From Methanomicrobia archaeon (lineage in GTDB: Archaea; Halobacteriota; Syntropharchaeia; Alkanophagales; Methanospirareceae): a stretch of 36,470 nt of DNA. The stretch spans positions 1 to 36,470 of the forward strand of contig JAFGKP010000123.1 in assembly GCA_016928455.1 (NCBI GenBank), in the 5' to 3' direction. Below, piece by piece: positions 19,951 to 36,470 of the stretch (position 1 is its first letter; each line of letters opens with the position of its first letter). The notes below the pieces were generated by a model, which saw only the letters and a list, made by a program, of their open reading frames with translations, was not told the origin of the DNA and made no database searches. Both the position numbers and the translations under genes were made by a program.

Positions 19951-20060
19951 CTCCGAATGATAGGATACGACAAGAATGACTACAGGTTCCCGCCCCCAGA
20001 CACCGATAACGATTTATATGCCGTAGATACTACCTTATTAGTAGTGGTGCACCAAGAAAA

Positions 20061-20708: not shown

Positions 20709-20902
20709 GTATCCAAAACCAGCGTCACACGGTTCTTGTCTTCGTGGAGCGGAGCGGACCCGCAAAGCTTAAACCCACAGAAACTAAAGAGTGTTTTGAA
20801 CAGGTGCGAGCGCTTTATTCGAGGCATTTTTGCCCACAATAGCGGGTCTCGTTCATACTATATCGCCGCTGTTCGTTCTTAACCTGAAGTTGGAGAAGAA
20901 CC
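20709..20902 (-). mobile_element. ISL3-family left-end remnant (putative IRL plus first ~40 codons of transposase)
   Basis: Minus strand begins GGTTCTTCTCCAACTTCAGG at 20902 (GG-initiated, ISL3-like). ATG 20827 gives MPRIKRSHLFKTLFSFCGFKLCG...RVTLVLD, homologous to the N-terminus of the remnant at 24071-24574. Confidence 0.7.
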
Positions 20903-20914
20903 AACAGTAGAGAC

Positions 20915-21310
20915 ATGGCAGTATTAGTAGATAAAACGGGGCGCATCGTCGCGACACATGCCATAACGCTCCACGGGCATTATGACCCTGAGCGCTGGGA
21001 TAGTGATACTGTAAGCGAGTTCATAGCAGAGAAGATGCAGCTCTTGGAGGATAAAGCTGATATAGAGCTATTACAGATTGATGGAGATAAGATAGAGGTA
21101 GTTGTCTACGTTTCCGAGCCTGATAAGCCGCCACATACTGTAGAGAGTTATGCGTTCTTCTGGATGATGAATCATGACATAACCCGGGAGAACGGACTAT
21201 TCGTGGATACCATTCTTGTTACTGAGTGTGAGGTTGAGCACAGTCTGTATATTGTGGTGGGGCACTATAAAAATAAGAATAAAAACAAAAATAGATCAGT
21301 ACATGAGTAA
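20915..21310 (+). CDS. Hypothetical protein, copy 1 (MAVLVDK...)
   Basis: 102/119 aa identical to the ORF at 24602-24973; both frames intact. Confidence 0.75.
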   Translation: MAVLVDKTGRIVATHAITLHGHYDPERWDSDTVSEFIAEKMQLLEDKADIELLQIDGDKIEVVVYVSEPDKPPHTVESYAFFWMMNHDITRENGLFVDTILVTECEVEHSLYIVVGHYKNKNKNKNRSVHE

Positions 21311-21314
21311 GGCT

Positions 21315-21368
21315 CGCGTGCATTTACAAAATTGTGCCAGCAGTGAGCTTTGTTGGGTTAACCAGACC
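21315..21368. repeat. 54-bp dispersed repeat, copy 1
   Basis: 45/54 identical, ungapped, to 36417-36470. Confidence 0.85.
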
Positions 21369-21386
21369 GAAAGGAATTAGTATATT

Positions 21387-21432
21387 GAGAGCGGATAAGT
21401 TATTGTGTTCGAATCAGTCTTATCCGCCCTCA
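21387..21432. other. Inverted repeat / hairpin
   Basis: TGAGAGCGGATAAG ... CTTATCCGCCCTCA, 14-bp arms with one mismatch. Confidence 0.7.
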
Positions 21433-21607
21433 AAAACAGTATATGTCTCATCCAACTTAAACGTACCGATTTGGGGGGATGACCCTCTGGTGGTCGGTAA
21501 AGGGCTCACTGAGCAATTCATAAGCGGGATCAACCTCGTCATGTCACGGATAGCCCCTGTAATCAGCAACTTTATAAGCATACAGTCACTAGTGGATTTC
21601 ACGGGCT

Positions 21608-21847
21608 ATGAAATTTAACATCACCCTTGAACGCGACGAGGAGGGGCGGTATGTTGCGGAATGTACCGACCTCCCCGGGTGTCTCTCTGAAGGCGAAACG
21701 GTGCAGGAAGCGATCGAGAACATCAGTGAAGCAATCGTGGGCTGTTTGAAATCGCGACTCAAGCTAGCTGGCGAGCAGTTGAAAGTCCCCGCGTTTTATC
21801 AGAAGCTGGATATTTCATTGGATCTTACGGGCACCGCGTATGTCTAA
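21608..21847 (+). CDS. hicB: HicB-like antitoxin (short form)
   Basis: YVAECTDLPGCLSEGETVQEAIENISEAI. Confidence 0.9.
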   Translation: MKFNITLERDEEGRYVAECTDLPGCLSEGETVQEAIENISEAIVGCLKSRLKLAGEQLKVPAFYQKLDISLDLTGTAYV

Positions 21848-22079
21848 GCTTCCCCGGGCGAGCGATGAGAAGCATGTTGCTGCGTTCAAACGAGCTGGTT
21901 GGAAGCTGAATCATATTGAAGGGAGTCACTACATTCTGATCAAAGAAGGGAGTGATGTCCACGTATCAATACCGGTACATAAGAATAAAACCCTCGGTCC
22001 CGGTCTTTTGAAGAAACTCATTGTCAAGGCAGATCTCACCATTGAGGGATATATCAAGCTCTTTTATAGCAAAAAGTAA
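21840..22079 (+). CDS. hicA: HicA mRNA interferase toxin
   Basis: GW...EGSHYIL...VSIPVH...LGPGLLKKLI; overlaps hicB. Confidence 0.9.
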   Translation: MSKLPRASDEKHVAAFKRAGWKLNHIEGSHYILIKEGSDVHVSIPVHKNKTLGPGLLKKLIVKADLTIEGYIKLFYSKK

Positions 22080-22376
22080 CCAAGTGGTCTTTAGCATCAT
22101 CACTACCAGTCTTTTCATTTTCCCCCATATTCTTTTTAGCGCTCACTTCTGCAGTGCTTCTGTACTTCCTCCTAACGTTTGAACATGCAGTGAATGTAGT
22201 TAGTTTGGTAGGATTATAACGCTACACACGCTTTCATCACAATCGTATTTCAACCACGCGGAATCGGTCTCAGGATTGCTTTTCTGGAGGAGCGCCCTCT
22301 CCGCACGCCCAAGGAATTATCAGGATACAAGTTATATAAGTATCCAATCACAATCTTTCAGTGGTGGCTGTGCTGT

Positions 22377-22562
22377 ATGGTGCTCAAAGTGAAGGCGCGG
22401 TATGAGGGTGAGGTCTTAAAGCCGCTGGAAGCGGTGGATTTGAAGGAAGGAGAAGAAGTAGAGCTTGAACTTAAGCGGGGTTCATTACAAGATTTTCATG
22501 GGAAGCTACAGCTTGAAAAAGAGCTTGCAGACGAAGTGATTGAGCTGGAGCTATGGGATTGA
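22377..22562 (+). CDS. AF2212-like (DUF104) antitoxin
   Basis: VKARYEGEVLKPLEAVDLKEGEEV; TTATATAA at about 22333. Confidence 0.88.
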   Translation: MVLKVKARYEGEVLKPLEAVDLKEGEEVELELKRGSLQDFHGKLQLEKELADEVIELELWD

Positions 22563-23053
22563 GCTTTGTCGGTATAAAATCAGGCGCAGGAATCTATGTG
22601 GATGCTAACATACACCTCTATTCCGCCTTTAAGCATCCCGTTTATGGTGCTTCGTGTCGGGATTTATTGATCCGTATAGATGAGGGGGACGTGTATGGTT
22701 ACACCTCGGATTTTGTGTTAGATGAGGTTTTGCATAAATTGATGATTGCGGAAGTAGCGAAGAACTATACAAAGAGTGCAAGGGAAGCGATTGTATATAT
22801 AAAAAAGAATCCCGAGGTGATTTCGCAGCTCGAGGTTGTATGGGCCGAGAGGGATCTCCTTGAACATTCTCATCTCGTCGTTTTGGAGAATCGATCTCTG
22901 TTCCCTGACTTTGTTAAGATATCGAAGAGCTATAACTTGATGGTCACTGATGCGGTTCACGTAGCTATAATGAGCAGGCACGGTTTGACGAACATCGCCA
23001 CGAACGATCCCGATTTCGAAAGAGTGGCAGGGCTCACGGTTTGGAAGCCGTAG
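22553..23053 (+). CDS. vapC: PIN-domain (VapC) toxin
   Basis: IYVDANI, TSDFVLDEV, TDAVHVA and IATNDPDF acidic catalytic set. Confidence 0.92.
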   Translation: MGLSFVGIKSGAGIYVDANIHLYSAFKHPVYGASCRDLLIRIDEGDVYGYTSDFVLDEVLHKLMIAEVAKNYTKSAREAIVYIKKNPEVISQLEVVWAERDLLEHSHLVVLENRSLFPDFVKISKSYNLMVTDAVHVAIMSRHGLTNIATNDPDFERVAGLTVWKP

Positions 23054-23188
23054 AGGCGTGTAAGCGGCGGTATGCTGCTGTTCTTCCCGGCATAGGCATC
23101 AAGCGATAGAAATAAAGGTCATCGGTCGCTGTCGGTCGCTCAGTCAGCACCTCCAGCAGATCCGGTTATTAAGTACGGTTAGAATAGT

Positions 23189-23650
23189 TCACACGACGAC
23201 CGTCCACTGGAGCACCTGGCCGCCGGAGACGGAGACGACGCTGATACGATCTCCGCTTTTGAGCTCAGCGCCCGGTGCGAGGAGTAATTCGAGCTCATCG
23301 GCGATCTCAAAATCAGGCTTCGAGATCGACCCGCGGTTCAGGGTCGCGTTACCCGCGTAGATCGCGCCGTTGATCCGAATCTCGAGGTTCTCACAGACCG
23401 TCTCGTTCAGGACGCGCTCGTCGGTGGGCTGGAAGGCGTTGGAGAGCGTATCCCCGCCCATATGCACGATGGTGACCTGATCAGAACCGGGCTTGGCACC
23501 CTCGATCATGATGTTGACCGAGTTCACCCTGAGTGCGGCATGCAGTATCCCCGCTGCGTACGTTGCGAGCATGGCCGCGATGATAATGACCACCACGATC
23601 ATCAGCAGCTCGCCGATTATCGGGCTCACCGCACGATCATCTTTGAGCAT
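23189..23650 (-). CDS. Archaeal type IV pilin (DUF1628/Pilin_N-type)
   Basis: Class III signal DDRA/VSPIIGELLMIVVVII; HMGGDTL motif; GGAGGTG RBS places the start at 23650. Confidence 0.9.
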   Translation of the reverse strand: MLKDDRAVSPIIGELLMIVVVIIIAAMLATYAAGILHAALRVNSVNIMIEGAKPGSDQVTIVHMGGDTLSNAFQPTDERVLNETVCENLEIRINGAIYAGNATLNRGSISKPDFEIADELELLLAPGAELKSGDRISVVSVSGGQVLQWTVVV

Positions 23651-24070
23651 CTCTTTCCACCTCCGTATCACTATTCTAGCCATCAGCAATATATACTTTG
23701 CGCTCGCGCACATGTTAGTCCCACCCAAACAGTTGCGCACGTTTGACAGCATTAAGCGAAGCGGAGAAGCTATACACTAACCATATAACACGTTTACCAG
23801 AACGTTTTTCACTCTAGAAAGTCTTTCATCTCTGTAGGTGGTGTTCCAAGAGGTGCTCGTGCTTGTTGCGACCAAGCCTAGCGGCCCGATCAGGGCGACG
23901 ATGCCGGGTGGTGTTACGAGTGGCACTTCTATTGGTTACTTACCGGTAACTAAAATCTATCACATATAACTGTTACTTACAGGTCATCCGCTTCGACGCG
24001 GTCACGCACGGCGTTCGCGAGTCTGCTCGTGTTCGGCTCGTGATCTGGTGGTGGAGCATGCGTAAAGAGC

Positions 24071-24574
24071 GCCGACCCAGATGACCGACTAGTCTGCTAT
24101 CCAGATCGCGTCGCGGACTACCGTGAAATAACGATGCTCCTTCTCATGGGTGATCTCGTCAATGCCGCGTTTCTCGGGATTCTGATCTTCAAGTTCAAGT
24201 CCCGTCACCAGGCGGTTCAGGTACTTCCTGTCAATCCGTTTCGCGGCCTTCCCGTTAATTGCGGCGACCTCACGTAGTCCTCGAAGCGTTTGGTATAGTG
24301 GCTGTACGTGTCCACGAAGTTTAGCTGGTACCGGATCTTCCGTTCAGTGAAGACGAAGAAGCACTGCTTCGGCCGATCTGCCGGGAACAGGTATCCTCAC
24401 GGGAACCGCAGCGTTTGCCACCGAGGCGAGGGGCACGTGGCAGTCTTACGTGTACGGTCCACTACCAGCGTCACTCGGTGCTCGTCTGCGCGGAGCGGAC
24501 GGAACCGCAAAGCTTAAAACCACAGCAATTAAAGTGGTTTCTGAACAGGGTTGAGAGAGCTTCAGTCGAGGCGT
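24071..24574 (-). mobile_element. Degraded ISL3-family transposase (5' half, several frameshifts)
   Basis: Frames join to LFRNHFNCCGFKLCG / VTLVVDRTRKTATCP / CFFVFTERKIR..LNFVDTYSHYTKRFEDYV / KRIDRKYL / GIDEITHEKEHRYFTVVRD / VIWVG, recognisable ISL3 zinc-finger, HTH and first DDE segments. Start ATG mutated to ACG. Confidence 0.85.
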
Positions 24575-24601
24575 TTTTGCTCACGCTGTTCGTTCCTGAA
24601 G

Positions 24602-24973
24602 ATGGCAGTATTAGTAGATAAAACGGGGCGCATCGTTGCGACACATTCCATAACGCTTCACGGGCATTATGACCCTAAGCGCTGGGATAGTGATACTGTA
24701 AGCGAGTTCATAGCAGAGCAGCTGCAGCTCTTGCAGGATAAAGCTGATAGAGAGCTATTACAGATCACGGGAAATACGATAGCTGTAGTGGTCTACGTTT
24801 CCGAGCCTGATAAGCCGCCATATACTATTGAGAGTTATGCTTTCTTCTGGATGATGACCCATGACATAACCCGAGAGAACGGCCTCTTTGTGGATACCAT
24901 TGATGTTACTGAGTGTACGGTTGAGAACAGTCTGTATATTGTGGTGGGGCACTGTAAAACAAAACAAGAATAA
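24602..24973 (+). CDS. Hypothetical protein, copy 2 (MAVLVDK...)
   Basis: Paralog of 20915-21310; start set by alignment. Confidence 0.75.
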   Translation: MAVLVDKTGRIVATHSITLHGHYDPKRWDSDTVSEFIAEQLQLLQDKADRELLQITGNTIAVVVYVSEPDKPPYTIESYAFFWMMTHDITRENGLFVDTIDVTECTVENSLYIVVGHCKTKQE

Positions 24974-25298
24974 ACCACTACATGATTACGGCTCCGCAGC
25001 GACCGGGGAGAACGGACGTGTTGTGTTCTGTAACCCGTTCACCGCTATTCTATCCCGGTACGGGCACGGAAAAAGCAGTCTCTTCGCGGCTTTTCGATCG
25101 GTGAATCGGGATCTGAACCACCGCACGACACGCTCGCGCTCATTCATAAACGTGGTGGAAACAAGCGAGCGAAGGCAGCCCGGGAACGGAAATCAGTCGG
25201 AAGTCCATGCTGGGACCCCAAGGTGGTGGCGATTCGCCGATTCATGAACATATTCACCAGGTCTTGCTGATCTGATACTCGCGCCGGTTCGAATTAAA

Positions 25299-25337
25299 GG
25301 AAAAATCAAAAGAGGGTGTTAAAAAAAAGCCACCCTC
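25299..25337 (-). terminator. Putative terminator downstream of the major pilin
   Basis: Minus strand GAGGGTG-gctttttttTaa-CACCCTC hairpin followed by TTTTGATTTTT. Confidence 0.65.
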
Positions 25338-25375
25338 GTATCCCTTTTCATGTTTATTATACTCTCGTTTCACGT

Positions 25376-25876
25376 CTACGATACAGTGATCCGCTGCAGG
25401 ATGTTGTCACTGGGCGTATGCAGGATAACAATGCTATCCCCATTTGTAAGATTGACGAACGTCAAATCGAGCTGATCTCCGGGAGCAAAACGAGCATCCC
25501 AATTAGCAGAGGCATTATTCCAAGCTACACTGTTTTTTGATAATGCACTTAGCTGGTTGCTACCACATGCAACACCATTTAGTCTTATCTCAAGGTACTC
25601 CCACTTATCAGTCATATTCGTTTTTTCAGCAGAGTCAAATGCATCGGTGATTGTATCACCGCCGTGATGGAATACCGTTACGGGGACAGTTCCGCCCGCA
25701 CTAACGCCTTCAACGACCATTGCGGAACTGGGCGCTTTATTCACGCCGCCGATGATCCCGTAGGCGAAGGCCGCAACAACTGCGGCAATGATCACGACGA
25801 TCGCGATCATCATGATCACACCGATGACCGGTGATACTGCTTTATCGTCCTTCTTCATGCTTCTTTTGGTTGTCAT
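25376..25876 (-). CDS. Archaeal type IV pilin, probable major pilin
   Basis: KKDDKA/VSPVIGVIMMIAIVVIIAAVVAAF class III signal; HHGGDTI; strong GGAGGTGA RBS at 25888-25895; own terminator. Confidence 0.93.
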   Translation of the reverse strand: MTTKRSMKKDDKAVSPVIGVIMMIAIVVIIAAVVAAFAYGIIGGVNKAPSSAMVVEGVSAGGTVPVTVFHHGGDTITDAFDSAEKTNMTDKWEYLEIRLNGVACGSNQLSALSKNSVAWNNASANWDARFAPGDQLDLTFVNLTNGDSIVILHTPSDNILQRITVS

Positions 25877-25901
25877 TTTTTATCGTATCACCTCCTAAAA
25901 C

Positions 25902-26084
25902 GTTTCTTTGACAAAGAAACCTTTACGAAAGAAACTTTTTTTCAGATCTTTCAGCTCGGGTCTCTTTGCATCGTGTCTCGATTCTGTAGGTACAAGAGCC
26001 TTCCGGGTCTCGGAAGGCTGGTCAGAGCCCACAAGAAGGGCTCGTGACAGTAAACAAGGTAGCTGAGTTACGAAGTTTGAGATC
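25902..26084 (-). promoter_or_regulatory. Candidate structured intercistronic/leader RNA upstream of the pilin
   Basis: Stems 25997-26019 (9 bp), 26021-26048 (10 bp with bulge), enclosing TCAGCT/AGCTGA (25951/26061), and palindrome 25902-25920. Confidence 0.5.
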
Positions 26085-26370
26085 ATCTTGCACGTTTCAC
26101 CGGTGGCGTTGGTGTCCACCACCAGTCCTCCTTTTCTCCTTGACCGTATTCTCCTCCGTCGTCTCGCTCAGCTCGCGTACCCGCGTCGCTGTTAGTATCA
26201 TCATCATCGAGTGCGGGGCAGTGGAGGTAATGGTGAACGGCGACGGTGAGTGCATCCTTGGTGGTGATCGTGCCGGAGCGTCGTTTTAATGCGTCCAGTT
26301 GTGATCGCAGGAGTGGCACCTGCGCGAAGACTACTTCGGTATCCTCCTGTCCTCGCATCCGCATCACCAT
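26083..26370 (-). CDS. DUF5371-like protein, predicted ribbon-helix-helix
   Basis: VVFAQVPLLRSQLDALKRRSGTITTKDALTVAVHHYLHCP; GGTGA RBS and promoter position favour a start at 26370. Confidence 0.72.
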   Translation of the reverse strand: MVMRMRGQEDTEVVFAQVPLLRSQLDALKRRSGTITTKDALTVAVHHYLHCPALDDDDTNSDAGTRAERDDGGEYGQGEKEDWWWTPTPPVKRAR

Positions 26371-26437
26371 GAGCAGCTCACCACCATGAGATTCATGCGT
26401 GTCCACCTCATCACCATCATTCATTCGCCACATTGCC

Positions 26438-26471
26438 TATATAAGCTTTGGGGGTGCATTTCCACTGGAAA
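26438..26471 (-). promoter_or_regulatory. Promoter (BRE/TATA) with upstream palindrome; copy 1 of a 32-bp direct repeat
   Basis: Minus strand TTTCCAGTGGAAA-tgcaccccc-AAAGCTTATATA; 30/32 identical to 28988-29019. Confidence 0.75.
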
Positions 26472-27128
26472 CTAATGGTCTCGCAGCGGTGTATTTTTCC
26501 GCCGAAATCTTATTGTGGTGAGTCTATATATAGAGACCGTTGGTGGATATTGCTCTGTTCTTGCAGTTTTGCAGTATTGTGAGTATTGTTTTACTATCTT
26601 CGACTCAGCTCAGTAGCATCAGCTCATGAAGGCAGTCAACATTGCACAGCGGAAGTGGTAAAGATGACGGGGATAGCGGTAGTATGATGTACGAGAATGG
26701 CGCAGCATCTCCAGGCCATGGGAGCAAGATACGGTAGGATGTATTGGTCCCGAGCTGGTGATAATTTCCAAATTGATCCTCGACCACGACCCGGCCTGCT
26801 GGTTTTCAGATTGGATTGCTGTTACTGCGAACTTTTTGAGATATTTTTAACGGTTGAACAGTTGAATTCTTCTGCTCTCTTCGTGAACGTTACGAGATAC
26901 TCCAAGGCCTGTTTCATCCCGACTCGGGAATCGCGATATCGGTGGTCTAGCTGCGGGAGTAACCGTTTTAAACAGTCAGATGATCTGCCCTTGCGATCCA
27001 GGAACAGTATCAGGAGCTATTCCATTAAGAACGCGCTCTTTAAGACGGGGAGAAGCGCTCCACGTCTGGGGTCATCAGGAATGGATCGTGATTCCCCTAT
27101 TTACTGACCTCACCCGCGTTGGAACGCC

Positions 27129-27536
27129 TTATTCAGGTGGTACCACGATAAAGGCATCATACTGCTTGAAATGTTCATCAAACGCAAAAGCTTCGGTTAC
27201 TCCCAGTCGTTCCATCAAAGCAAAGCTCGTACAGTCGGTAAAACTAAAGGACTTATCATGGTAACTCACGAATATCTCCCATGCCCTGTTCTCATCTTGT
27301 GGGGTTATATGTATAAGATTGGCGATGGATTCGTCCCACAGTTTATGTCCAATCTCGACAGCGACCTCATAGCCCAGATGGCTCCTTACCAAAGTAATAA
27401 CCTCATCTACAATGTAGTTGCTCGTAATCATGGGGTGAACTAACGAGTCTTGTAACGTTACTGCAGCATGATGGTTGGCATCACTTTTATCGAGGAGTGC
27501 GTACCAGGCACTGGTATCAACGAATAAGTAAGGCAC
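27129..27536 (-). CDS. vapC: PIN-domain (VapC) toxin
   Basis: LFVDTSAW, SNYIVDEV, SFTDCTSF and AFAFDEHF. Confidence 0.93.
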   Translation of the reverse strand: MPYLFVDTSAWYALLDKSDANHHAAVTLQDSLVHPMITSNYIVDEVITLVRSHLGYEVAVEIGHKLWDESIANLIHITPQDENRAWEIFVSYHDKSFSFTDCTSFALMERLGVTEAFAFDEHFKQYDAFIVVPPE

Positions 27537-27541
27537 GTTAT

Positions 27542-27763
27542 CTATCCCTCATAGAGATAATGGTCATGTCTGCGTGAAACATCGCGGACGCCGCTCTCGC
27601 CAATACCAATAATATCAGATAATTCCTTCCGCTGTGATTCCAGTAGGTCCGCATCCTCCTCTGGTATAACCACTAAGTGCACATGCTTGTGCTCAGGGAA
27701 GTCTATCTTCTGAAGTGGCTTGAATACGCCATCCTTATACACCGCCACTATTGTTTTTGCCAT
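27542..27763 (-). CDS. AF2212-like (DUF104) antitoxin
   Basis: MAKTIVAVYKDGVFKPL...GIGESGVRDVSRRHDHYLY; start moved to 27763. Confidence 0.88.
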   Translation of the reverse strand: MAKTIVAVYKDGVFKPLQKIDFPEHKHVHLVVIPEEDADLLESQRKELSDIIGIGESGVRDVSRRHDHYLYEG

Positions 27764-28151
27764 TTTTTTTAGAAACAGTATCTTTTTCGTGCATATATAT
27801 TTGTGCGCTTTTCCGTCCTCCACGTCGCGGGATGATGATAGTCATGTTCGTGGCAGCCGACCTCGTGTCCAGGCACTTGCACCAGGTTGCCCAAGAACTA
27901 AAGAAATCTCTACCCGGTCTGCTTCACTCCAACTCAGTGTGATATTTTGTTTTGTGAGAATCCGACATATTCATCGTCTCCGATAGATAGGATGGATATT
28001 CGCAAGTGGTACAGGTACGTCATGGACCACGTTATCTCGTGCCAGGTCTCCTGGTGACGAAATGCTGAAGAGCCGAAGATTATTCTTACCGGTATAGAAG
28101 AACCATTATACGTGGATTATCTATTATCTTACACTATAAGGGCTATCAGCG

Positions 28152-28371
28152 ATGACCAGGACGAAGAGGATAGAGCTGGTATATGAGGGTGGTGGATTTG
28201 GAGGAAGGAATTAGTGGACAATCAAATTTAAGAACGAAAGGCAAGAACCGGGGTGTGCTCACGTCCAGAGACCTTGAGGAATTACGAACGCTATTGAAAT
28301 CTTTACCAAAGACAACCGTTGACTTCAAGAAGTTGGATGAATTATACTATGAAGCAAAAATGCGCAGTTAG
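28152..28371 (+). pseudogene. AF2212-like antitoxin broken by an internal deletion
   Basis: MTRTKRIELVYEGG in one frame, VDLEEG...LDELYYEAKMRS* in another; the KPLE segment is missing between GGTG microhomologies (compare 22401-22450). Confidence 0.7.
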
Positions 28372-28530
28372 TTGGTACAACTGTACTCCTCAAAGTAATT
28401 CTAGAAGGAGATAGTGACCTGATAGAATTTAATGAATCCCAAATCCTTAGCGGATATAACGGATAGGATAGTGATAGAGAAGATCATCATTCTGGATACT
28501 ACTATCTATGGAATTCAAGGAGCGGTTAGA
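28349..28530 (+). pseudogene. Decayed PIN toxin remnant
   Basis: ATG overlapping the antitoxin end; MKQKCAV/(shift)GTTVLLKVILEGD resembles a PIN N-terminus. Right boundary approximate. Confidence 0.45.
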
Positions 28531-28654
28531 ACGGTGAACGTGATCCGCCGGTATTCGCTTTCGTTTTCCCTTTCCGCAGCCAGATGCTGGCTCCCGGAAT
28601 CTCGTGCGGCTCTCAGGAACGGTGCAGCATGCTCGATACTGCGGCTACTTAAAC

Positions 28655-28909
28655 TTAACGTGACGCCGCGCCGGAGCGCAGGAGCGCGAATTTGGTGGCC
28701 AGTACCGGCGTGGCCGGGCTGTCTTCGCGCACCACCGCTTTCGCGAGATCTTCGAGCTCCATGAACTCCTCCCTGGGTGCACCGCATTCGGGACAGACCC
28801 AGGCATCAGGCAGCGCGTCAAACGGGATCCCGGGCTCGATCGCGCCCTCAAAATCGCCCAATTTGGGGTCGTAGACCTCGCCACAGATAAGGCATTCGTA
28901 CCGTTTCAT
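28655..28909 (-). CDS. Rubredoxin with C-terminal extension
   Basis: [14 protein letters not shown]...[26 protein letters not shown]. Confidence 0.93.
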
Positions 28910-28987
28910 CGTTCACAAAACCCCCACATAGCAGCCCGCAGATCACACAACGATACAATTACGGGATACGTCCATGCGCTTGGTGGA

Positions 28988-29019
28988 TATATAAGCCTTG
29001 GGGGTACATTTCCACTGGA
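28988..29019 (-). promoter_or_regulatory. Promoter with palindrome; copy 2 of the 32-bp direct repeat, upstream of rubredoxin
   Basis: tatataagccttgggggtacatttccactgga versus tatataagctttgggggtgcatttccactgga. Confidence 0.75.
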
Positions 29020-29217
29020 GATGCGGCTGTCCGGTGCTGCACTCAGTGCTCCGAATTGAACGGTATGCCGGCTCATGCATGTTCAGGAACGCAAGCAGCG
29101 GATGGATCGTGACGCTTTTTATTCGCTTTTTCAGTCGCGGGCTTCCGTGTTAGCGGGGCACAGGAACATTTAATACATAAAAACGCGTTAGGCATTCTCG
29201 ATCAGCAGCATACTACC

Positions 29218-29907
29218 ATGCCACGCAGCAGCGGTCACTCGTTCACCGGTCGCCCGGCTCGTGCCGGGCTGCTCATCAGTAGGATGCTCACGGCCGTCGT
29301 GCTCGTCCTGATTCTGGCTGCGGATGCTTCGGCCGCAGCTGTAACGAACGGCGAGTCCCCGCTCGCCGACGAACCGGGTGAGGATATCGCGACGGTTGCC
29401 TTTACGTCTCCGGACGACCCGCAGCTCGCGATCTTACGCGACTTCCGCGATACCGTGTTGCTCACCAACCCGGTAGGCGCGTTCGTATGGACCACGTATA
29501 CTGCAGTGAGCCCGCCGATCGCGGCGGTGCTGCTGGAGCGCGAGCACCTGCGTATCGCGACCCGAGTCTTACTGCTCACGCCGGTGATCTATCTCGCGGC
29601 GCTGTGTATGAACACGATCGCGCTGCTCGCCTTTATCGTGCTCATTCTGCTCGTGCTCGTGAGCCTGCGTCGTTATCTCAAGCCCATCCTCACGGGCGTC
29701 CTCTACGGCGTCCTGGCCGGTGCCGCGTTTGCGGTCGCTGCGGTCACGCTCGGCGCGCTCGGCCACGAGCTGCCGTACTGCGCGGTGATTGCCGCGTATC
29801 TGCTGCCCGTGATCGTTCCTGTCGGGCTTGCCGTCTGTCTCATCACCTGGATCGAGTCGCAGGCGCGCCCGCGTGCGGCCCCGCGTCTGAGGCCACGACT
29901 GTATTGA
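29218..29907 (+). CDS. Membrane protein with a CFI-box-CTERM-like domain
   Basis: Signal-like N-terminus; IATVAF.SP..PQLAILRDFRD.VLLTNPVG..V..Y..VSPPIA..L....LR...R.LL.P; then about three further TM helices. Confidence 0.8.
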   Translation: MPRSSGHSFTGRPARAGLLISRMLTAVVLVLILAADASAAAVTNGESPLADEPGEDIATVAFTSPDDPQLAILRDFRDTVLLTNPVGAFVWTTYTAVSPPIAAVLLEREHLRIATRVLLLTPVIYLAALCMNTIALLAFIVLILLVLVSLRRYLKPILTGVLYGVLAGAAFAVAAVTLGALGHELPYCAVIAAYLLPVIVPVGLAVCLITWIESQARPRAAPRLRPRLY

Positions 29908-30327
29908 TTAAATCCACGTTTTAGCTCACTCTACTGAATGTTTCACCGTGATCCGTTTCTTTAGATGAAAAACCGTTCGTCTCTTTCATCAATCGTCTGC
30001 AATCCATGCGTTTTGAGTCCCTGGTAATCGGTGAGAACAGGGTCACAAAGTGCACTGAACGCTGAGTTATTTAGTAATTAGAAAGGCACATACGTATGAC
30101 CGAGCGTTTAGCGGGATTCGTAGCAGAATGAAAATGTTGATAACGGAATAGTAGGGTAAAGGTATCACTGTCCTTCTTTATCCGAGTTCAGACACAAGAA
30201 GATATCCGGTTGAACTGTACCGTACTGTACGTGAAGACAAGGACTTTGTGTTCTTGTGGGTCTCGAGCAAGAGTATATTAAATGAGCAGTATTGACGTTA
30301 TGTACTACCCATAAGGCGCAAGCAAAT

Positions 30328-30342
30328 GGAAAGCTTTATATA
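30328..30342 (+). promoter_or_regulatory. BRE/TATA promoter of the giant pilin-like operon
   Basis: GGAAAGCTTTATATA about 55 nt upstream of ATG 30397; AAAGCTT(T)ATATAGGCA is shared with the DUF5371 promoter. Confidence 0.65.
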
Positions 30343-30396
30343 GGCAGGAAAACATACAGAAATGAGTTAAACCAGTCCAATTGTTTTCGCACGCTC

Positions 30397-32637
30397 ATGA
30401 GTCTCAAAATCCGGAGGAATAGAACCAGGAGCACAAACAAGAGCATCCTTCAGGACACGCGTGCGATCTCTGAGGTATTAGGTGCTTTGATCATTATGGC
30501 TATTCTGCTTTCCGCATCGTCTATCTATCTCGCGCAGCAACTGCCTGAATGGACAAAGGAGTATGAGGCGAAACATGCAGCTGCAGTGCCACATGACTTT
30601 GCCACGCTCGAGGCTAATATCGAGCGTGCGGTATTGAGCGAAGATCCAACCACCGTAACGTCTACAACGGTTGGTATGCTCCCTGAAGGCGTCCCGCTGA
30701 TTGGCATGTACCCAGCCGGTGGCACGCTCCAGTTCAACCCGAATCAAGAAACGTTCGAATGCATCGCCGCCACACCAGATGATTCAGCGGTTTCTGGCAG
30801 TGGCTATTATTGGAATAACACTACCGATTGGAATACCTTCAATGATACGTATCATGTAGTTGTCACTACGTCAAAAGCAGAGTTGGAACCTGCGAAGAGA
30901 GGAAATTTAAATATTACGAAAAATCAGTCGCTATCCGGGGAATATTATCGTGATACGTTCAGTGTGCGAAACAACTCGACACTGACCATTGATGGGCGGT
31001 TAACGATCCATGCTCGGACTATTTTCGTTGAAGAGGGATCAAGCATCAATGCGGACGGCAAGGGCTGGTCCGGTGGGCTGGGCAACTCACCTGGAGATAA
31101 CGGGACTGGTGTGGGCGGGGGACTGGGCGGGAATCAATCAAAAACGGGAAATGCAGGTGGTGATGGTGGAGGAGGCGGGGGCTGTGGCGGTAATGGCGGT
31201 AATGGCGGTGAAAATCAGAATTCGGGCGGCAATGCCTCTGATTTGCTAAACTACTTAGGACCCAGTTGTGCCGGAGAGGTGATGGGCTCTGGCGGCGGAG
31301 GTGGTGGTGATGGTCATGACAGTGAGGGACAAATGATAGCTTCATCCGGCGGTGACGGCGGCAGTGGCGGGGGTTATGTCTGCTTAGACGCCGCTTTTAT
31401 TGACATTAGCGGCAACATCTCCGCCTGCGGCGCGAACGGTGAAGGTAAGTTGCAATATGATGAGAATGAATCCTACCGAGGTGGTGGCGGAGGAGGCGGT
31501 AGCGGAGGCTGGATAAAAATCATTGGCGATAACGTGAACATTACTGGAGTCCTCGTTGCCGCGGGTGGCAATGGAGGTGAGAGCCCCGCAGGAGATGGTG
31601 GGGGTGGGGGTGGGGGTGGAATAGTTGAGGTATTTTACTATAGCCCCTCACAGATCAAGGAGAGCCATATAGATGTGCGCCCTGGGAGAGGTGGAAATGG
31701 TTCTCTGCCAGGTAATAATGGTACTTCGGGGATAAAGGATCCCCCAAAAAACCAACCATATAACTCCACCCTTTTTCACTATGAGTCTGGTTATCTCGTC
31801 TCGAATATGACCGAAGTCCCGGACCAAGAGAAGGTTGGGTACGATACGAACAGCTCACGTACTCGCTACGGTAATCTGACGTATCGTGCGGATGTGCCTG
31901 CGGGAACGGACATCGTGCTCAAGGTGCGCACCTCTATGTATGATGACATGCACGATGCAATGCCCTGGGAGACCTGCCCGCCGGTCGCAAACGGAACGGC
32001 CATCTCTGGTCTCATCTCTGTCTCCGACGGGCACCGGTACATCCAGTGGCGCGCGGAGCTGCTCACCTTCAGCCCCGAAATCACACCCCGGCTCCACTGG
32101 GTCAATATCACTTATGACTATGGCGAGCCCGTGCTCGCGCGCACTTCCGGCACGATCAGCTACGCGAGCCAGTACCTCTATTACCCCAATTATAACCTCG
32201 TCTATGCACATGGCGCCACGATCAGGGAGCAGTATGGCCGGGCCTTCATGCTCTTCCCACCGCCGGTCTTCGTCGAGGCTCATGAGACGGGAAGCGCGCT
32301 CACCATCACGGCGATTGATATAACCGGTGATGAGTCCTCAGTCAGCGGCCGTATGAGCGCTACCGTCCAAACCGCGCCACAGGGCGCTGCGCTGCTCAAG
32401 CCCGGCCTGAACTATGCGAATATTACCCTTAATCTGACTACCGCGTATCGTAGCGCATGGGTGGATTGGTTCACCGCGACCTGCAACGACGCGGGCTTAT
32501 CACATGGGACAGAACCAGGACAGTACAACATCACCATTACACCAGATGCGCTCCAGGTCATCTTTTATGGCAACGAGACGAAGCCCGTGAAGTTGTGGCT
32601 CAAGCGTGCAGAAGCCAGGGTAAAACTCACTGAATGA
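30397..32637 (+). CDS. Giant pilin-like protein (class III signal) with glycine-rich insert, paralog 1
   Basis: QDTRA/ISEVLGALIIMAILL; PEWTKEYE..H...V..DF; GGGGG tracts at 30895-31776; YIQWRAEL domain; many N-x-S/T sequons. Start moved to 30397, downstream of the promoter. Confidence 0.88.
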   Translation: MSLKIRRNRTRSTNKSILQDTRAISEVLGALIIMAILLSASSIYLAQQLPEWTKEYEAKHAAAVPHDFATLEANIERAVLSEDPTTVTSTTVGMLPEGVPLIGMYPAGGTLQFNPNQETFECIAATPDDSAVSGSGYYWNNTTDWNTFNDTYHVVVTTSKAELEPAKRGNLNITKNQSLSGEYYRDTFSVRNNSTLTIDGRLTIHARTIFVEEGSSINADGKGWSGGLGNSPGDNGTGVGGGLGGNQSKTGNAGGDGGGGGGCGGNGGNGGENQNSGGNASDLLNYLGPSCAGEVMGSGGGGGGDGHDSEGQMIASSGGDGGSGGGYVCLDAAFIDISGNISACGANGEGKLQYDENESYRGGGGGGGSGGWIKIIGDNVNITGVLVAAGGNGGESPAGDGGGGGGGGIVEVFYYSPSQIKESHIDVRPGRGGNGSLPGNNGTSGIKDPPKNQPYNSTLFHYESGYLVSNMTEVPDQEKVGYDTNSSRTRYGNLTYRADVPAGTDIVLKVRTSMYDDMHDAMPWETCPPVANGTAISGLISVSDGHRYIQWRAELLTFSPEITPRLHWVNITYDYGEPVLARTSGTISYASQYLYYPNYNLVYAHGATIREQYGRAFMLFPPPVFVEAHETGSALTITAIDITGDESSVSGRMSATVQTAPQGAALLKPGLNYANITLNLTTAYRSAWVDWFTATCNDAGLSHGTEPGQYNITITPDALQVIFYGNETKPVKLWLKRAEARVKLTE

Positions 32638-32678
32638 AGTGATAATATGGAGAACCTAATGGGAAAAGAACAGAGGCT

Positions 32679-34886
32679 ATGACAGCATTCTGGAAGAGCG
32701 AGCAGGCCGTTTCTGAAGTGGTGGGCGTGCTCCTGATAATGGCTATTCTCCTCTCTCTGAGCGCGATCTTCTTCTCGCGAGAGGTTCCGGCATGGACGAA
32801 GGAGTTCGAATATCAGCATGCCGCAAAGGTCCCGCAGGACTTCGCGGCACTCGGCGCACAAATTGATATGGCGCTGGCGAGCGAAGACCCAGCGACACCC
32901 TTGTCTACTGCTATCGGGATGACCCCCGGTACTGTCCCGCTGGTCGGCCTCCAGGCCGCCGAAGGCACGCTCACCTTCGAGCCTGATGAAGAGACTTTCG
33001 AATGTATCGCCACCACGCTCGAAGCAGCAAATACCTCGGGGAACGCCTACTGGAATGATAGCTCTACCTGGACTAAATTCGAGAAGTACCATGTGAAAGT
33101 GACCGATTCGGGCGTACGGCTGGAATCCGACGCGGGAGAATATAAAGACCCTATTGAAACGAACGGGACACTCTCGGGGGAATATTATTGCGATCGCTTC
33201 ATCGTCCGGAATAATTCGACACTGACCGTACCGGGACGGTTAACGATCCACGCCATGAACATTTTCGTTGATGAAGGGACTCTAATTACCGCAGATGGCT
33301 GGGGCTATGCGGGTGGGGCGGGCAACAAGCCGGGGTATAACGGGAGTGGAACAGGTGGAGGGAAAGGTGGAGACGAAGGTGAAAATAAGAAAGAAGGGGG
33401 TTACGGCGGCGGTGGTGGGGGATGCGGCGGAGAAGGGGGCCGTGGGGGGAATAATACCGACTCAGGTGGCAGTGCATCGCATTTGAACGATTTGATGGGC
33501 TCTGGCGGCGGTGGCGGTGGCGACTGGAAGGATCCTAATGGTAAGATCGTACTCTCATCAGGTGGTGCCGGTGGGTCGGGTGGGGGTTATATACAGTTAG
33601 ATGCGGCCACTATTGATATTCGGGGTATTATCTCCGCTAATGGATCAGACGGAGTAGGTGCTCAATTATCTAAGGACAATAACTTTTTTGGTGGGGGTGG
33701 CGGTGGTGGTAGCGGCGGCCTGATCATCATCAAAGGTAATGTCGTCAATATTACCGGTATGCTCTACGCCATGGGCGGTGATGGGGGCAGTAATGACGAT
33801 AAAGGAACCGGCGGTGGTGGTGGCGGGGGCGGTGAAATCCATGTATATTACGATAGCAGTATCTTTCCAAATGACGTAAAAGCTGACCATATCAATGTAG
33901 GTTACGGTAATGGTGGCAGCAGTGGTAAGGAGGGGGCGGAGGATGGGAAGAACGGCACGCCCGGATCACCCGTGGTAAATCAATCCCTTTACTTTCCGAG
34001 TATCTTCTACTACAGCTCAGGGTATATCGTCTCGAACATGATCAACGTCTCAGACCAGGGGCAGGTCGGGTACGATACGAAGAACAGCACCCTCATTCGC
34101 TACGGGAATGTAACGTACGGGTCTGAGCTTCCGCCTGATACTGATATCGTGCTGAAGGTCCGCACCTCGATGTGTCCTGACATGCACGATGCGCTACCCT
34201 GGGAAGACTGCCCGCCCGTTGCCAATAACACGTACATCCCGAACCTCCCCTCGGCCTCTGACGGGCACCAGTACATCCAGTGGCGTGCTGAACTGCTCAC
34301 CTTCGATCCGCGCATCACGCCCGTGCTCTCGTGGGTCAATATCAGCTACGAGTATGGCAAACGACCGGTGCTCGTTACGTCATCCGGGCATCTGGACTAC
34401 AAGAGCCAGTATCTCTATTTCCCCAATTATCAACTCGTCCACACACACGGCGGCACGATTAAACTTCAGGATGACGAGAGTTTCATGCTCTTCGCACCGC
34501 CTATCTTTGTGAGCACTGATGATTCAGGAATATCGCTCAAAATCACCGCGGTCAACCTTACAGGTACTAAAAGAACGCTCAGCGGACGGCTCAGCGCCAC
34601 CGTGCAGGCCTCGTACCTTGAGGACACCCTGCTCACCAACGGCTTGAACTTCGCGAATATCACCCTGAATATCACGACCAACTATCCCGCCGCATGGGCA
34701 GACTGGTTCAACACGACCTGCAAAGACGCGGGAATAGTGTATGGAAATGCTTCCGGGCAGTATAACATCACCTACAAGAGCACCGCCGCACCAGATACGC
34801 TCCAGATTGTCTTCTACGGCAACGAGACGAAGCCGGTGAACCTGTGGTTGAAACGATCCCGTGCGAAGGTCGAAATAACGAGCTGA
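32679..34886 (+). CDS. Giant pilin-like protein with glycine-rich insert, paralog 2
   Basis: SEQA/VSEVVGVLLIMAILL; colinear with paralog 1; insert at 33132-34007. Confidence 0.9.
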   Translation: MTAFWKSEQAVSEVVGVLLIMAILLSLSAIFFSREVPAWTKEFEYQHAAKVPQDFAALGAQIDMALASEDPATPLSTAIGMTPGTVPLVGLQAAEGTLTFEPDEETFECIATTLEAANTSGNAYWNDSSTWTKFEKYHVKVTDSGVRLESDAGEYKDPIETNGTLSGEYYCDRFIVRNNSTLTVPGRLTIHAMNIFVDEGTLITADGWGYAGGAGNKPGYNGSGTGGGKGGDEGENKKEGGYGGGGGGCGGEGGRGGNNTDSGGSASHLNDLMGSGGGGGGDWKDPNGKIVLSSGGAGGSGGGYIQLDAATIDIRGIISANGSDGVGAQLSKDNNFFGGGGGGGSGGLIIIKGNVVNITGMLYAMGGDGGSNDDKGTGGGGGGGGEIHVYYDSSIFPNDVKADHINVGYGNGGSSGKEGAEDGKNGTPGSPVVNQSLYFPSIFYYSSGYIVSNMINVSDQGQVGYDTKNSTLIRYGNVTYGSELPPDTDIVLKVRTSMCPDMHDALPWEDCPPVANNTYIPNLPSASDGHQYIQWRAELLTFDPRITPVLSWVNISYEYGKRPVLVTSSGHLDYKSQYLYFPNYQLVHTHGGTIKLQDDESFMLFAPPIFVSTDDSGISLKITAVNLTGTKRTLSGRLSATVQASYLEDTLLTNGLNFANITLNITTNYPAAWADWFNTTCKDAGIVYGNASGQYNITYKSTAAPDTLQIVFYGNETKPVNLWLKRSRAKVEITS

Positions 34887-34913
34887 AACGAATGAAGGGA
34901 TTCTGAGAGCTAT

Positions 34914-36245
34914 ATGAGTATGCGACGCCGATCAGAACCAGGAACCGAAGCCGCCCAGGCGTTCGTCGTGGGGGCGATCCTCATCACCGGGATCGTGCTT
35001 ACCACGTCCTTTATCTACCTCTCCATCAACACGCCGGCAGCGACCAAAGCGGGCGAGTATCAGCATGCCGCCGCGGTCGCTGCGGATTTCAATACGCTCT
35101 GCTACAGCATTACCGCTTTGAGAGCTTCAGCATCGTCTGGTGCTTCACTCTCCGTGCCGATCCGCATGAGCCCTGCGAAAGAGTCGCTCATCGCGCTTCC
35201 CGCAGCCGCGGGCACGATCAGCTTCTCACCCGCTACCGAGCAGGTGAGCATTAGCGTCAATGGCACGGGCTCGCCTCCTGCTGGGCCCTGGACGGACGAG
35301 GAGTTCACGCATACCGACCGCTTTAAAGTCGAGATAGCGTCAGGCAACGCCACGCTCGCCAAGCCGCGATACGCACGGGGCTATCTGGAATCGAACCATA
35401 GTACTACACCGGGCAAGATCGGGGGGAAGGATCTGGGAAGTGCGAACATTACGTACGAGAACTTCTCGTGGAACACCAGTCTTCCAGCAAACACGCGGAT
35501 CGTCTTGAAGGTGAGAACGGACATGTTCCCGGATATGAGGCATGCTAAGAACTGGAGCGACTGCCCGGCAATCGAATCACAAGACGGGTTCAATAACAGA
35601 AGTCTCGCGAAAATCGCATCGGTCTCACCGGGGCATCAGTATGTGCAGTATCGCGCGGAGCTCAGCACCTGGGATCCCGATTTAACGCCCACGTTATGTA
35701 ACGTGAGCATCTCTTACAACTTCTCACAACCAGAGGTTGTCCTCGCGAGCTCTTCCGGCTCGATCAGCTTCACGAGCAACCACTGCTATCTCCCGGAGCA
35801 TACCCTCAGCTATGCAAGTGGCGCGGTAATCAAGAAGCAGCAGGACAATGAGTTCGTGCTCGGGAATTTCAGCATCTCCGCCGCTAAAGCAGGCAGTACT
35901 ACAGAAATCCGCATCTCGCTCTTTGACCTGACCGGAACCTCGGTCCCTGCGCAGAGTGGCCAACCAACGACCATCATTAAAATATATCGCGATGACTACG
36001 GACTCATCTCTGATTCGTTCTATTATCCCAATCTCACGCTGAACATCACGACGAATTATACCCAGGCCTGGTCAGACTGGCTGAATAAGACCCTTGACGC
36101 GGCTGGATTGGTCCGCAGCTCTGACTCTGACTACAATCTCTCGAGGCCTACTAATAACTCGGTACGGGTCGTGTTTTATGGCCATGATGATGGTGTTAAG
36201 TTGTATCTCGATAAGACCACCGTTCAGGTACGCATACCAACATAA
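34914..36245 (+). CDS. Pilin-like protein, paralog 3, lacking the glycine-rich insert
   Basis: TEAA/QAFVVGAILITGIVL; EYQHAAAV..DF; IVLKVRT..W.DCP; HQYVQYRAEL; LNITTNY..AW.DW. Confidence 0.88.
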   Translation: MSMRRRSEPGTEAAQAFVVGAILITGIVLTTSFIYLSINTPAATKAGEYQHAAAVAADFNTLCYSITALRASASSGASLSVPIRMSPAKESLIALPAAAGTISFSPATEQVSISVNGTGSPPAGPWTDEEFTHTDRFKVEIASGNATLAKPRYARGYLESNHSTTPGKIGGKDLGSANITYENFSWNTSLPANTRIVLKVRTDMFPDMRHAKNWSDCPAIESQDGFNNRSLAKIASVSPGHQYVQYRAELSTWDPDLTPTLCNVSISYNFSQPEVVLASSSGSISFTSNHCYLPEHTLSYASGAVIKKQQDNEFVLGNFSISAAKAGSTTEIRISLFDLTGTSVPAQSGQPTTIIKIYRDDYGLISDSFYYPNLTLNITTNYTQAWSDWLNKTLDAAGLVRSSDSDYNLSRPTNNSVRVVFYGHDDGVKLYLDKTTVQVRIPT

Positions 36246-36416
36246 GTTATGCTGGTAGCGAGCGCGGTGACGGTATCGTGTGCGTGGTGCTACGTTAGAG
36301 CATTCTGTACGTTTGGATGGTTCGGATGATGTCCGATTCCGCATCAGGCCTGCATTGAGCGTGTATGTATGCAGGATGAACGACCGAAAGCGGGGTTGTC
36401 AAGTTAATGGGTGCTG

Positions 36417-36470
36417 CGCGTGATTTTACAAAATTGCGTTAGCAGCGAGCTTCGTTAGGGTAACCAGACC
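36417..36470. repeat. 54-bp dispersed repeat, copy 2 (runs to the window end)
   Basis: 45/54 identical to 21315-21368. Confidence 0.85.

Follow-up and report, generated by a model that had tools for sequence, protein, structure and literature searches.

Three tandem DUF7289 genes of a Methanospirareceae genome encode candidate modular pilins with a jelly-roll and a predicted glycine-rich beta-helix

What are the three large tandem genes in the genome of a methane-seep archaeon of the family Methanospirareceae for, and what is the glycine-rich segment that two of their products carry and the third lacks? The genes lie in a window that is the whole stretch of DNA analysed, contig JAFGKP010000123.1 of assembly GCA_016928455.1 (36,470 bp). 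The window is the entire contig C37 of a 1.51-Mb metagenome-assembled genome (MAG) that consists of 154 contigs and is 75% complete. An original prediction, made from the sequence without database searches, described giant pilins with a removable polyglycine cassette, displayed on a heterotrimeric pilus tip. The three products, P1, P2 and P3 (paralogs 1, 2 and 3), are probably adhesins: modular pilins, minor or at the tip, of the Epd-type filament of this family. The features on which this interpretation is built are the following.

30397-32637, + strand: P1 (paralog 1), 746 aa from the first in-frame ATG; DUF7289-type, with a glycine-rich module and a jelly-roll cassette
30895-31776, + strand: glycine-rich module of P1, predicted to be beta-helix/polyglycine-II-like, 294 aa; the gap in the six-frame alignment with P3
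32679-34886, + strand: P2 (paralog 2), 735 aa; architecture as in P1
33123-34010, + strand: glycine-rich module of P2, predicted to be beta-helix/polyglycine-II-like, 296 aa (aa 149-444); the gap in the alignment with P3
34011-34403, + strand: predicted jelly-roll core of P2, a beta-sandwich like that of carbohydrate-binding modules (CBMs), aa 445-575, from IVLKVRT to YIQWRAEL; homologous to P3 aa ~150-278
34404-34886, + strand: C-terminal half of the putative pilin body of P2, DUF7289 profile positions ~111-200
34914-36245, + strand: P3 (paralog 3), 443 aa; scaffold and jelly-roll as in P1 and P2, without the glycine module

The borders of the inserts come from a six-frame search of the genome with P3 as the query. 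Residues 15-151 of P3 match 30466-30894 in P1, and residues 152-441 match 31777-32628; in P2 the corresponding matches are residues 12-148 with 32700-33122 and residues 153-441 with 34011-34877. The search confirms three tandem paralogs with an insert at a shared site where P3 reads straight through. The original prediction had placed the P1 insert exactly and had recognised the P2 insert, for which its borders (33132-34007, 292 aa) are off by at most three codons.

Homology extends well beyond the borders of the inserts. P1 and P2 are 58% identical in alignment A1 and P1 and P3 36%, and two motifs, IVLKVRT and Y(I/V)Q(W/Y)RAEL, do not vary among the three proteins. A Pfam scan of P1-P3 returned DUF7289 (PF23960, cut-off 27 bits) as the sole family above cut-off, with 28.2 bits for P1 and 27.8 bits for P2; P3 scores 21.6 bits, below the cut-off, despite being homologous to P1 and P2 by alignment. 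Only positions ~108-204 of the 238 in the profile are matched, in the C-terminal part of each protein, because the insert splits the domain. Seven plain DUF7289 proteins of 260-303 aa align to columns 1-134 and ~601-780 of P1-P3 only, and the middle region is therefore an inserted cassette; some of the plain small proteins of this family have sub-threshold Pilin_N starts. The basic unit is about 270 aa, with the cassette in one loop that measures ~160 aa in P3 (N part aa 1-115, cassette aa ~116-278, C part aa 279-443) and ~455 aa in P1 and P2. The jelly-roll is present in all three proteins, and the glycine module precedes it in P1 and P2. With P2 as the query, an exhaustive search of representative sequences yielded 954 relatives at E<=1e-3, which are of three kinds: full-length proteins of ~690-810 aa, many proteins of ~260-300 aa with two separate matches (query ~3-130 and ~565-700), and proteins of 1,000-7,000 aa that match query ~160-570 only. 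These alignments demonstrate one level of nested insertion in a scaffold that appears, from its sequence, to be pilin-like.

Glycine makes up 30% of the insert and 5-8% of the rest of the protein. Pure glycine runs of 6, 6, 7 and 8 residues occur in each of the P1 and P2 inserts, where they alternate with strands such as YIQLDAATIDIRGIISANG and LIIIKGNVVNITGMLYAMGG, and P3 has no glycine run of at least four. The alternation had been noted in the original prediction, which gave the tracts as five to nine residues long. P2 aa 140-470 were modelled with AlphaFold2 from a 44-row alignment. The model has a mean predicted local distance difference test (pLDDT) score of 86.1 and a predicted template modelling (pTM) score of 0.85. 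Long and short strands form repeated pairs (28-37/42-44, 48-58/63-65, 165-175/178-180 and 209-219/222-224), and residues 66-164 of the model, at pLDDT 81-97, have almost no helix or strand, only isolated one-residue bridges. The module is predicted to be an ordered beta-helix whose remaining surface is made of segments like polyglycine-II (PGII), in keeping with the beta-solenoid and PGII bundle first proposed for it.

Fold searches point in the same direction. Foldseek returned 0 matches to the insert in the PDB at E<=1e-3, and its weak matches (E 1.6-10) are PL6 alginate lyases, a pectate lyase, tailspikes, a tapirin, a mycobacteriophage tail-tip protein and the receptor-binding domain of phage gp38. 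Of the phage-fibre PGII bundles with which a comparison had been proposed, gp38 (9v85) appears at no better than E 4.2; ALK/LTK, proposed alongside them, are not among the matches listed. An exhaustive VIA-align search, for which the stated background is that best Z scores of 7-8 are common, gave the FHA secretion domain at Z 10.7 (root-mean-square deviation (rmsd) 3.7, 127 residues aligned), HxuA at 10.5, EtpA at 9.9, the tapirin-type adhesin 4wa0 at 9.6 and HMW1 at 9.2. Overall, the matches to beta-helix adhesins have Z 9.2-10.7 and rmsd 2.2-4.6 over 120-154 aligned residues. The springtail antifreeze protein 7jjv_B, built of nine polyproline-II helices, was matched at Z 8.7 (rmsd 4.2, 124/126 residues, 28% identity). 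Given the VIA-align background, the fold support for a beta-helix with PGII-like segments is moderate. Among predicted viral structures the module has 12 matches at E<=1e-3 (best 8e-9, TMq 0.49), namely 'collagen-like' proteins of a prasinovirus, Orpheovirus and Pandoravirus and proteins of uncultured phages.

Sequence families offer little for this module. No Pfam, NCBIfam or PDB sequence family spans it, and no Pfam model does so in the 10 relatives scanned; Gly_rich_2 (PF21722) reaches 10.6 bits (E 0.55) in P2, below its threshold of 24.3. Compared with the PDB, the sequence profile of the module found only a synthetic Gly-Ser linker (E 0.041) and profile A3 had no match. The ESM Atlas yielded unnamed clusters only (scores 0.92-0.93), and PHROGs one family of unknown function (E 4.4e-4). 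Hundreds of large surface proteins, of bacterial, archaeal and viral origin, contain the module, which is widespread, structurally unsolved and, as a model, confidently predicted. It is 73% identical to its ortholog at locus L011 of another Methanospirareceae MAG and thus as conserved as the flanking parts: the N part, jelly-roll core and C part are 68-76% identical, and the segment just before the insert 48%. The invariant columns of the module are nearly all glycine.

In the P3 model, confidence is confined to the jelly-roll (pLDDT ~80). Its fold matches, at Z 6-8.1, are jelly-roll/CBM sandwiches, phage tail proteins, Endo-D, Eph ligand-binding domains and reelin, and the modelled resemblance to CBM-type sandwiches is a generic fold match. 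The jelly-roll part is also present in non-pilin proteins. For a second nesting, of the glycine module within the jelly-roll, a hidden Markov model of the 70 preceding residues in 21 non-pilin proteins gave no significant match to P3-type proteins (best E 0.024). The segments upstream of the module are heterogeneous in these 21 proteins, and BLAST detects the post-insert part only.

Variable cargo at the insertion site, for which a survey of homologs had been suggested, was considered and rejected. All 15 of the inserts extracted from homologs of ~700-800 aa are glycine modules (24-32% glycine); ten of the 15 are unmatched by BLAST, yet the glycine module is present. The exception is P0040, a metagenomic DUF7289 protein of 1038 aa whose cassette consists of CBM96, the glycine module and two jelly-roll copies. 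It is the only relative seen with extra cargo at this site.

The pilin-like character of the scaffold is suggested by its N-terminus. A short charged leader, with [D/E/R/Q]-A at its end, opens each of P1-P3, and the 19-mer behind it has a Kyte-Doolittle mean of 2.3-2.9. The leader junctions, marked here by a slash, are ..TRA/ISEVLG, ..EQA/VSEVVG and ..EAAQ/AFVVG. In the PDB, the scaffold profile (A4) is matched best by the alpha-1 helix of GspG (5wda_A, E 4.7e-4), and eight of the 11 matches listed are type IV pilins or pseudopilins, three of them archaeal. The P3 model, at a mean pLDDT of 55.8, has helices at 11-39 and 42-71, then strands. P1, P2 and P3 contain 27, 23 and 17 N-x-S/T sequons, compared with 7.5, 6.8 and 4.9 in shuffled sequences (0 of 2000 shuffles reach the observed number), an enrichment that fits exported archaeal surface proteins.

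The three genes lie close together on the + strand, with gaps of 41 nt between P1 and P2 and 27 nt between P2 and P3. The open reading frame (ORF) lister began P1 at TTG 30292, upstream of ATG 30397. A possible promoter element can be read directly from the sequence.

30335-30342, + strand: TTTATATA box with an A-rich (AAAGC) upstream flank

The box is 55 nt 5' of ATG 30397 and falls inside the longer ORF that starts at TTG, and for this reason the ATG is favoured as the start of P1. It is likely an archaeal promoter that serves all three genes as one operon. Two metatranscriptome runs of the same study gave nothing over 22900-36470, which is no evidence either way on expression. A scan of the window for sigma-70 promoters and terminators, a method unsuited to archaea, remained at or below shuffle expectation, and Rfam and tRNA scans of the window found no match. 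One contig from an independent assembly of a public DNA run, which may be the source sample, is identical over 28340-36413. Because this contig agrees and other genomes have orthologs in the same layout, the three-gene arrangement is no chance or assembly artefact.

A filament would need a machine and a shaft, and candidates for both are present in the genome. The original prediction left the ATPase, TadC and prepilin peptidase genes to be located. A T2SSE-type ATPase gene, the only one in the genome, lies on another contig (C130:3948-5906), with the gene of a conserved 301-aa protein immediately before it and T2SSF/TadC genes (5864-6796 and 6699-7751) directly after it; one A24 prepilin peptidase gene is on C129. 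In the consulted text of PMC13705601, the 'system 1'/Epd-type is defined by this layout of one ATPase and two platform genes that are separate. Neither an archaellin (PF01917) nor an archaellum ATPase was found in the genome, and absences are provisional here, at a genome completeness of 75%. Just two Pilin_N genes were found, both of them in the window, 5-7 kb upstream of P1-P3.

25376-25876, - strand: small canonical archaeal pilin, 166 aa, KAVSPVIG...; TIGR02537 E 8.2e-9, Pilin_N 62.1 bits; candidate major subunit
23189-23752, - strand: second small pilin, 187-aa ORF; TIGR02537 E 4.3e-6, Pilin_N 54.7 bits

The start of the second small pilin is likely an internal Met before KDDRAVSPIIG. A complex prediction for P3 with the 166-aa pilin scored 0.00, below the mark, and gives no evidence either way.

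The association of the large genes with this machine is visible in relatives. A scan of GTDB species genomes gave 31 loci, and the ORFs of 23 of them (L011-L033) were compared with P3, parts of P2 and the genes of C130. The close loci are titled anaerobic methanotrophic archaea of group 1 (ANME-1)/Methanophagales, Methanospirareceae or, loosely, 'Methanosarcinales' or 'Halobacteria'. At L011 a CFI-box protein is followed by genes for 742, 728 and 460 aa in the order of the window (P3 62% identical), and the three-gene order is kept at L029 (751, 821 and 483 aa). The big pilin genes adjoin TadC2-TadC1-ATPase homologs in six of the 23 loci (L012, L022, L023, L025, L026 and L027); these homologs are 54-73% identical to the C130 proteins, and four of the six loci also carry a homolog of the 301-aa protein. 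Small pilins lie divergently upstream of the big ones in L022, L023 and L024.

At the level of whole genomes, relatives of P2 occur in 25 of the 79 genomes of the class, all of them in one family of ANME-1/Methanospirareceae-like MAGs. When the window genome is left aside, they are present in 24/65 genomes of that family (5/15 in the genus of the window, 12/28 among high-quality genomes) versus 0/13 in five other families. Orthologs of the C130 ATPase (58-88% identity, E<=1e-170) were found in 31 genomes, and elsewhere there are paralogs (<=49%). Big pilins are present in 23 of the 31 genomes with the ATPase ortholog versus two of the 48 others (79% and 61% complete), a tabulation made by hand from two genome searches. 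Related genomes do not count as independent, but nine genera show the pattern; G047, with an apparently fragmented ATPase ortholog, was placed with the 48. A single contig carries both ATPase and big pilins in 10 of the 23 genomes. The sought machinery genes are therefore not only located but also linked to, or co-occurring with, the big pilin genes in relatives.

The history of the paralogs was followed in a quick maximum-likelihood tree of 37 rows and 430 columns, which holds the three window proteins, 27 ORFs judged full-length and seven small proteins as the outgroup; fragments and contig-end pieces of L012, L013, L018, L021, L022, L025, L030, L032 and L033 were left out. Three clades of large genes appear: eight genes for ~700-aa proteins from ATPase-linked loci, ten P3-type genes (support 100), none of which has the glycine module, and twelve P1/P2-type genes (support 99). 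For each of P1 and P2 the partner in the tree is an ortholog from L011, and because the two pairs are sisters, the duplication is specific to the lineage of the window and L011. The idea that the cassette is removable thus stands as presence or absence at the level of clades, in one instance; the tree does not order the three clades, and the module may have been lost in the P3-type or gained in the others. The ANME-1-type big pilin genes at L030 (MAXT01000001.1, a 'Desulfuromonadales bacterium' MAG) nest inside the archaeal clade. This contig is likely a mis-binned archaeal contig from a consortium, and gene transfer is less likely.

How the system may work can be outlined from these parts. 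The three genes, as one operon, would give paralogous, heavily N-glycosylated, type-IV-pilin-like DUF7289 surface proteins of an ANME-1-family archaeon, which the genome's single prepilin-type peptidase would process. The proteins would then enter the filament of the genome's only type-IV-filament machine, with its one ATPase and two TadC-like platform proteins. Since a cassette of such bulk could not pack in the shaft, we infer that they would be incorporated in low abundance, as subunits for priming or at the tip; the shaft itself would be formed by the two small Pilin_N pilins. The pilin body, beta-rich and opened at one loop by the cassette, would be a carrier from which the jelly-roll, with or without the beta-helix, is displayed as an adhesin towards glycans, partner cells or particles.

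Several observations weigh against this mechanism, and some of them would fit proteins that never polymerise. P1-P3 might instead be membrane-anchored surface proteins, either S-layer-associated adhesins or a pseudopilin-like base or stator, independent of any filament and with an N-terminal transmembrane helix that is uncleaved or serves just as an anchor. The leader motif is degenerate, and the Pilin_N model (PF07790, cut-off 25.2) gives P2 15.8 bits (E 0.027) and no match to P1 or P3; likewise TIGR02537 gives P2 12.1 against a cut-off of 20 and does not match P1 or P3. A strict class-III (FlaFind-like) hexamer occurs in 0 of the three window proteins and 22 of 59 family members; as neither of the small canonical pilins matches it, the pattern in this form is unreliable. 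Outside the jelly-roll the P3 model is of low quality, which leaves the pilin fold itself putative, and the VIA-align scores of the module (Z 8-11) exceed the stated background only modestly. Both in the genome of the window and in L011, the relative nearest to it, the three genes lie apart from the ATPase locus; 3' of the third gene, L011 has a gene for an unknown 421-aa protein, toxin-antitoxin genes and isopropylmalate dehydrogenase. Eight genomes have the orthologous ATPase and no big pilin found with the P2 query. Five Methanophagales-type loci (L014, L015, L016, L017 and L019) have a P3-type gene alone and far from any pilus gene, at about 5.9-8.5 kb and immediately 3' of gyrA, even overlapping it. 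Against a purely membrane-anchored role stand the tight co-occurrence with one ATPase orthogroup, the adjacency to the ATPase in 10 genomes and six named loci, and the match of the alpha-1 profile to pseudopilins and pilins. Such a role is the main rival reading and the less likely one.

The remaining alternatives concern stoichiometry and function. An obligate 1:1:1 heterotrimer that caps the pilus, like GspI-J-K, was part of the original prediction and would suit genes that are in tandem and probably co-transcribed, a three-gene order that is kept in L011 and L029, P3-type and P1/P2-type clades that are old and separate, and the bacterial precedent of GspIJK (PMC8179133). The number of big pilins, however, varies from 1 to 8 matches per genome: there is one at L023, flanked by a small pilin and TadC2, and there are two at L026; four stand in tandem in one genome, and another has 8. 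With P3-type genes solitary in five loci and the P1/P2 duplication common to the window and L011 only, the obligate trimer is unsupported and seems improbable. That the beta-helix is a surface-displayed polysaccharide lyase or hydrolase, cutting matrix or partner glycans with the jelly-roll as its CBM, would accord with the weak Foldseek matches to lyases and tailspikes, with the CBM-like jelly-roll and with the CBM96 of P0040. Yet no catalytic family in Pfam, NCBIfam or the PDB is matched by the sequence of the module, its nearly all-glycine invariant columns leave no conserved acidic or basic catalytic set visible, and its top fold matches are adhesin-type beta-helices, so an enzyme is quite improbable. 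Least credible is a DNA receptor whose inserted beta-helix binds extracellular DNA for uptake or exchange. It rests on the architectural analogy with ComZ of Thermus, a DNA-binding beta-solenoid inserted in a pilin (PMC6561018), but ComZ was matched neither by sequence nor among the fold matches listed, no competence genes were seen in the loci examined, and the module stands out for glycine and for a high number of sequons, not for basic residues. The reading that we prefer is thus that of minor or tip pilins, modular in build, with an adhesive function.

Other features of the window surround the pilin genes. Directly upstream of P1 is the gene of a membrane protein.

29218-29907, + strand: CFI-box-CTERM membrane protein, NF041770 E 1.1e-16

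Its ortholog (L011 3270-3956) is 71% identical and likewise lies directly upstream of three pilin genes, and a functional tie to the pilin operon is possible from this conserved order. Further upstream, 18375-28000 is a toxin-antitoxin-rich island of low GC (0.44-0.50) in which both small pilin genes are embedded. Its annotated genes include the following.

18375-19233: nucleotidyltransferase/HepT
20266-20553, 22553-23053 and 27129-27536: PIN genes
21608-22079: HicB/HicA

A duplicated cassette at 20755-21310 and 24500-24973 consists of a 50-nt upstream element (84% identical) and a 131/140-aa ORF (88-91% DNA identity) that belongs to no Pfam family; its copies flank the first small pilin gene. 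A 54-nt direct repeat occurs at 21315-21368, right after the 131-aa ORF, and at 36417-36470, the contig end, 171 nt past P3. The copies are 83% identical, with a core 28-mer that was matched twice (0 expected), and no further copy was found in the assembled genome. They bracket a 15-kb stretch of toxin-antitoxin genes, small pilins and big pilins, and could be an att-like or an assembly-breaking repeat. The + strand encodes another large surface protein at 12638-15844, of secreted type and 1068 aa, in which NosD/right-handed beta-helix repeats come after a subtilase S8 domain; it is unrelated to the pilins. The MCR alpha subunit (PF02249) was not found in the 75%-complete genome, whose relatives are labelled ANME-1/Methanospirareceae. 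Genome incompleteness may explain the missing MCR alpha and archaellin.

ANME-1 archaea are uncultured and are key players in methane oxidation. In this genome a single filament machine is accompanied by two small pilins and by three giant proteins of modular, pilin-like build, which makes a concrete, testable candidate for the adhesive end of the filament. A broader proposal would be that the only type IV filament of ANME-1, whose small subunits would be the 'flaB' reported at high expression in AOM consortia, carries giant tip pilins that display a structurally unsolved beta-helix/PGII fold as the determinant of partner or substrate contact in methane-oxidising consortia, and that this fold, common to giant-virus and phage proteins, is a general and so far unrecognised receptor-binding module. 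This proposal is put forward tentatively and is doubtful as a whole. As the module recurs in hundreds of surface and viral proteins and has no solved close relative, one solved structure would annotate many proteins.

With regard to ANME-1 themselves, published work describes 'flaB'/flagellin genes that are highly expressed, and the passages concerned treat them as small subunits only (PMC9539880, PMC5947290); a role of ANME-1 flagellin or pilin in contact or electron transfer with partner bacteria has been considered possible (PMC5947290, PMC9539880). Because no archaellin or archaellum ATPase was found in the genome, we infer that the 'flaB' of ANME-1 may be small pilins of the present system. 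From archaeal type IV filament loci, large proteins that resemble adhesins have been reported, as have class-III proteins that carry additional domains (Makarova et al. 2016, PMC4858521; 2026 survey, PMC13705601). The main text of these papers on Epd-type/'system 1' loci, as far as it was available, makes no reference to ANME-1, DUF7289, glycine-rich modules or internal insertion. A literature search found no mention of DUF7289, and the titles and abstract openings searched hold no description of a glycine-rich or beta-solenoid insertion in archaeal pilins.

The module itself resembles two kinds of known protein. Like polyproline-II and PGII bundle proteins, it has long glycine tracts that are predicted to be ordered without alpha or beta structure, and 7jjv_B is matched at Z 8.7; unlike them, it combines glycine segments with a long-stranded beta-helix. 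The two-partner secretion adhesins with a beta-helix (FHA, HxuA, EtpA and HMW1) and the tapirins of Caldicellulosiruptor are its best fold matches and are surface adhesins, but they lack sequence similarity to it and are neither rich in glycine nor inserted into a pilin. The genes for tapirins lie in a type IV pilus locus.

The insertion of a domain into a pilin, for which the original prediction knew no characterised archaeal case and which it took for an undescribed system, has bacterial counterparts. GspK and the modular pilins of Streptococcus sanguinis (PilB with a vWA domain, PilC with a lectin) are minor pilins with an extra module, located at the tip (PMC8179133), in a survey whose text, as seen, does not mention archaea. 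In GspK the module is inserted within the pilin beta-sheet, as would be the case here, but the insert is an alpha-domain and the protein bacterial; in PilB and PilC, also bacterial, the modules are C-terminal grafts. Closest is ComZ of Thermus thermophilus, in which a ~380-residue beta-solenoid is inserted between the last two strands of a pseudopilin-like fold (PMC6561018). ComZ is a competence minor pilin that binds its neighbour PilA2 and has been argued, on steric grounds, to sit at the tip (PMC6561018). The likeness lies in a beta-solenoid inserted in a pilin fold and encoded beside other pilins. ComZ differs in being bacterial, without detectable sequence relation, and in having a single inserted domain whose solenoid is not glycine-rich, whereas the cassette of P1 and P2 joins a jelly-roll to a predicted glycine-rich helix in an archaeal DUF7289 scaffold. 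Since a beta-solenoid in a pilin is already known from bacterial ComZ (compare GspK), P1-P3 would be an archaeal version of a known kind of modular pilin, and the bacterial concept of modular pilins by domain insertion would extend to archaea.

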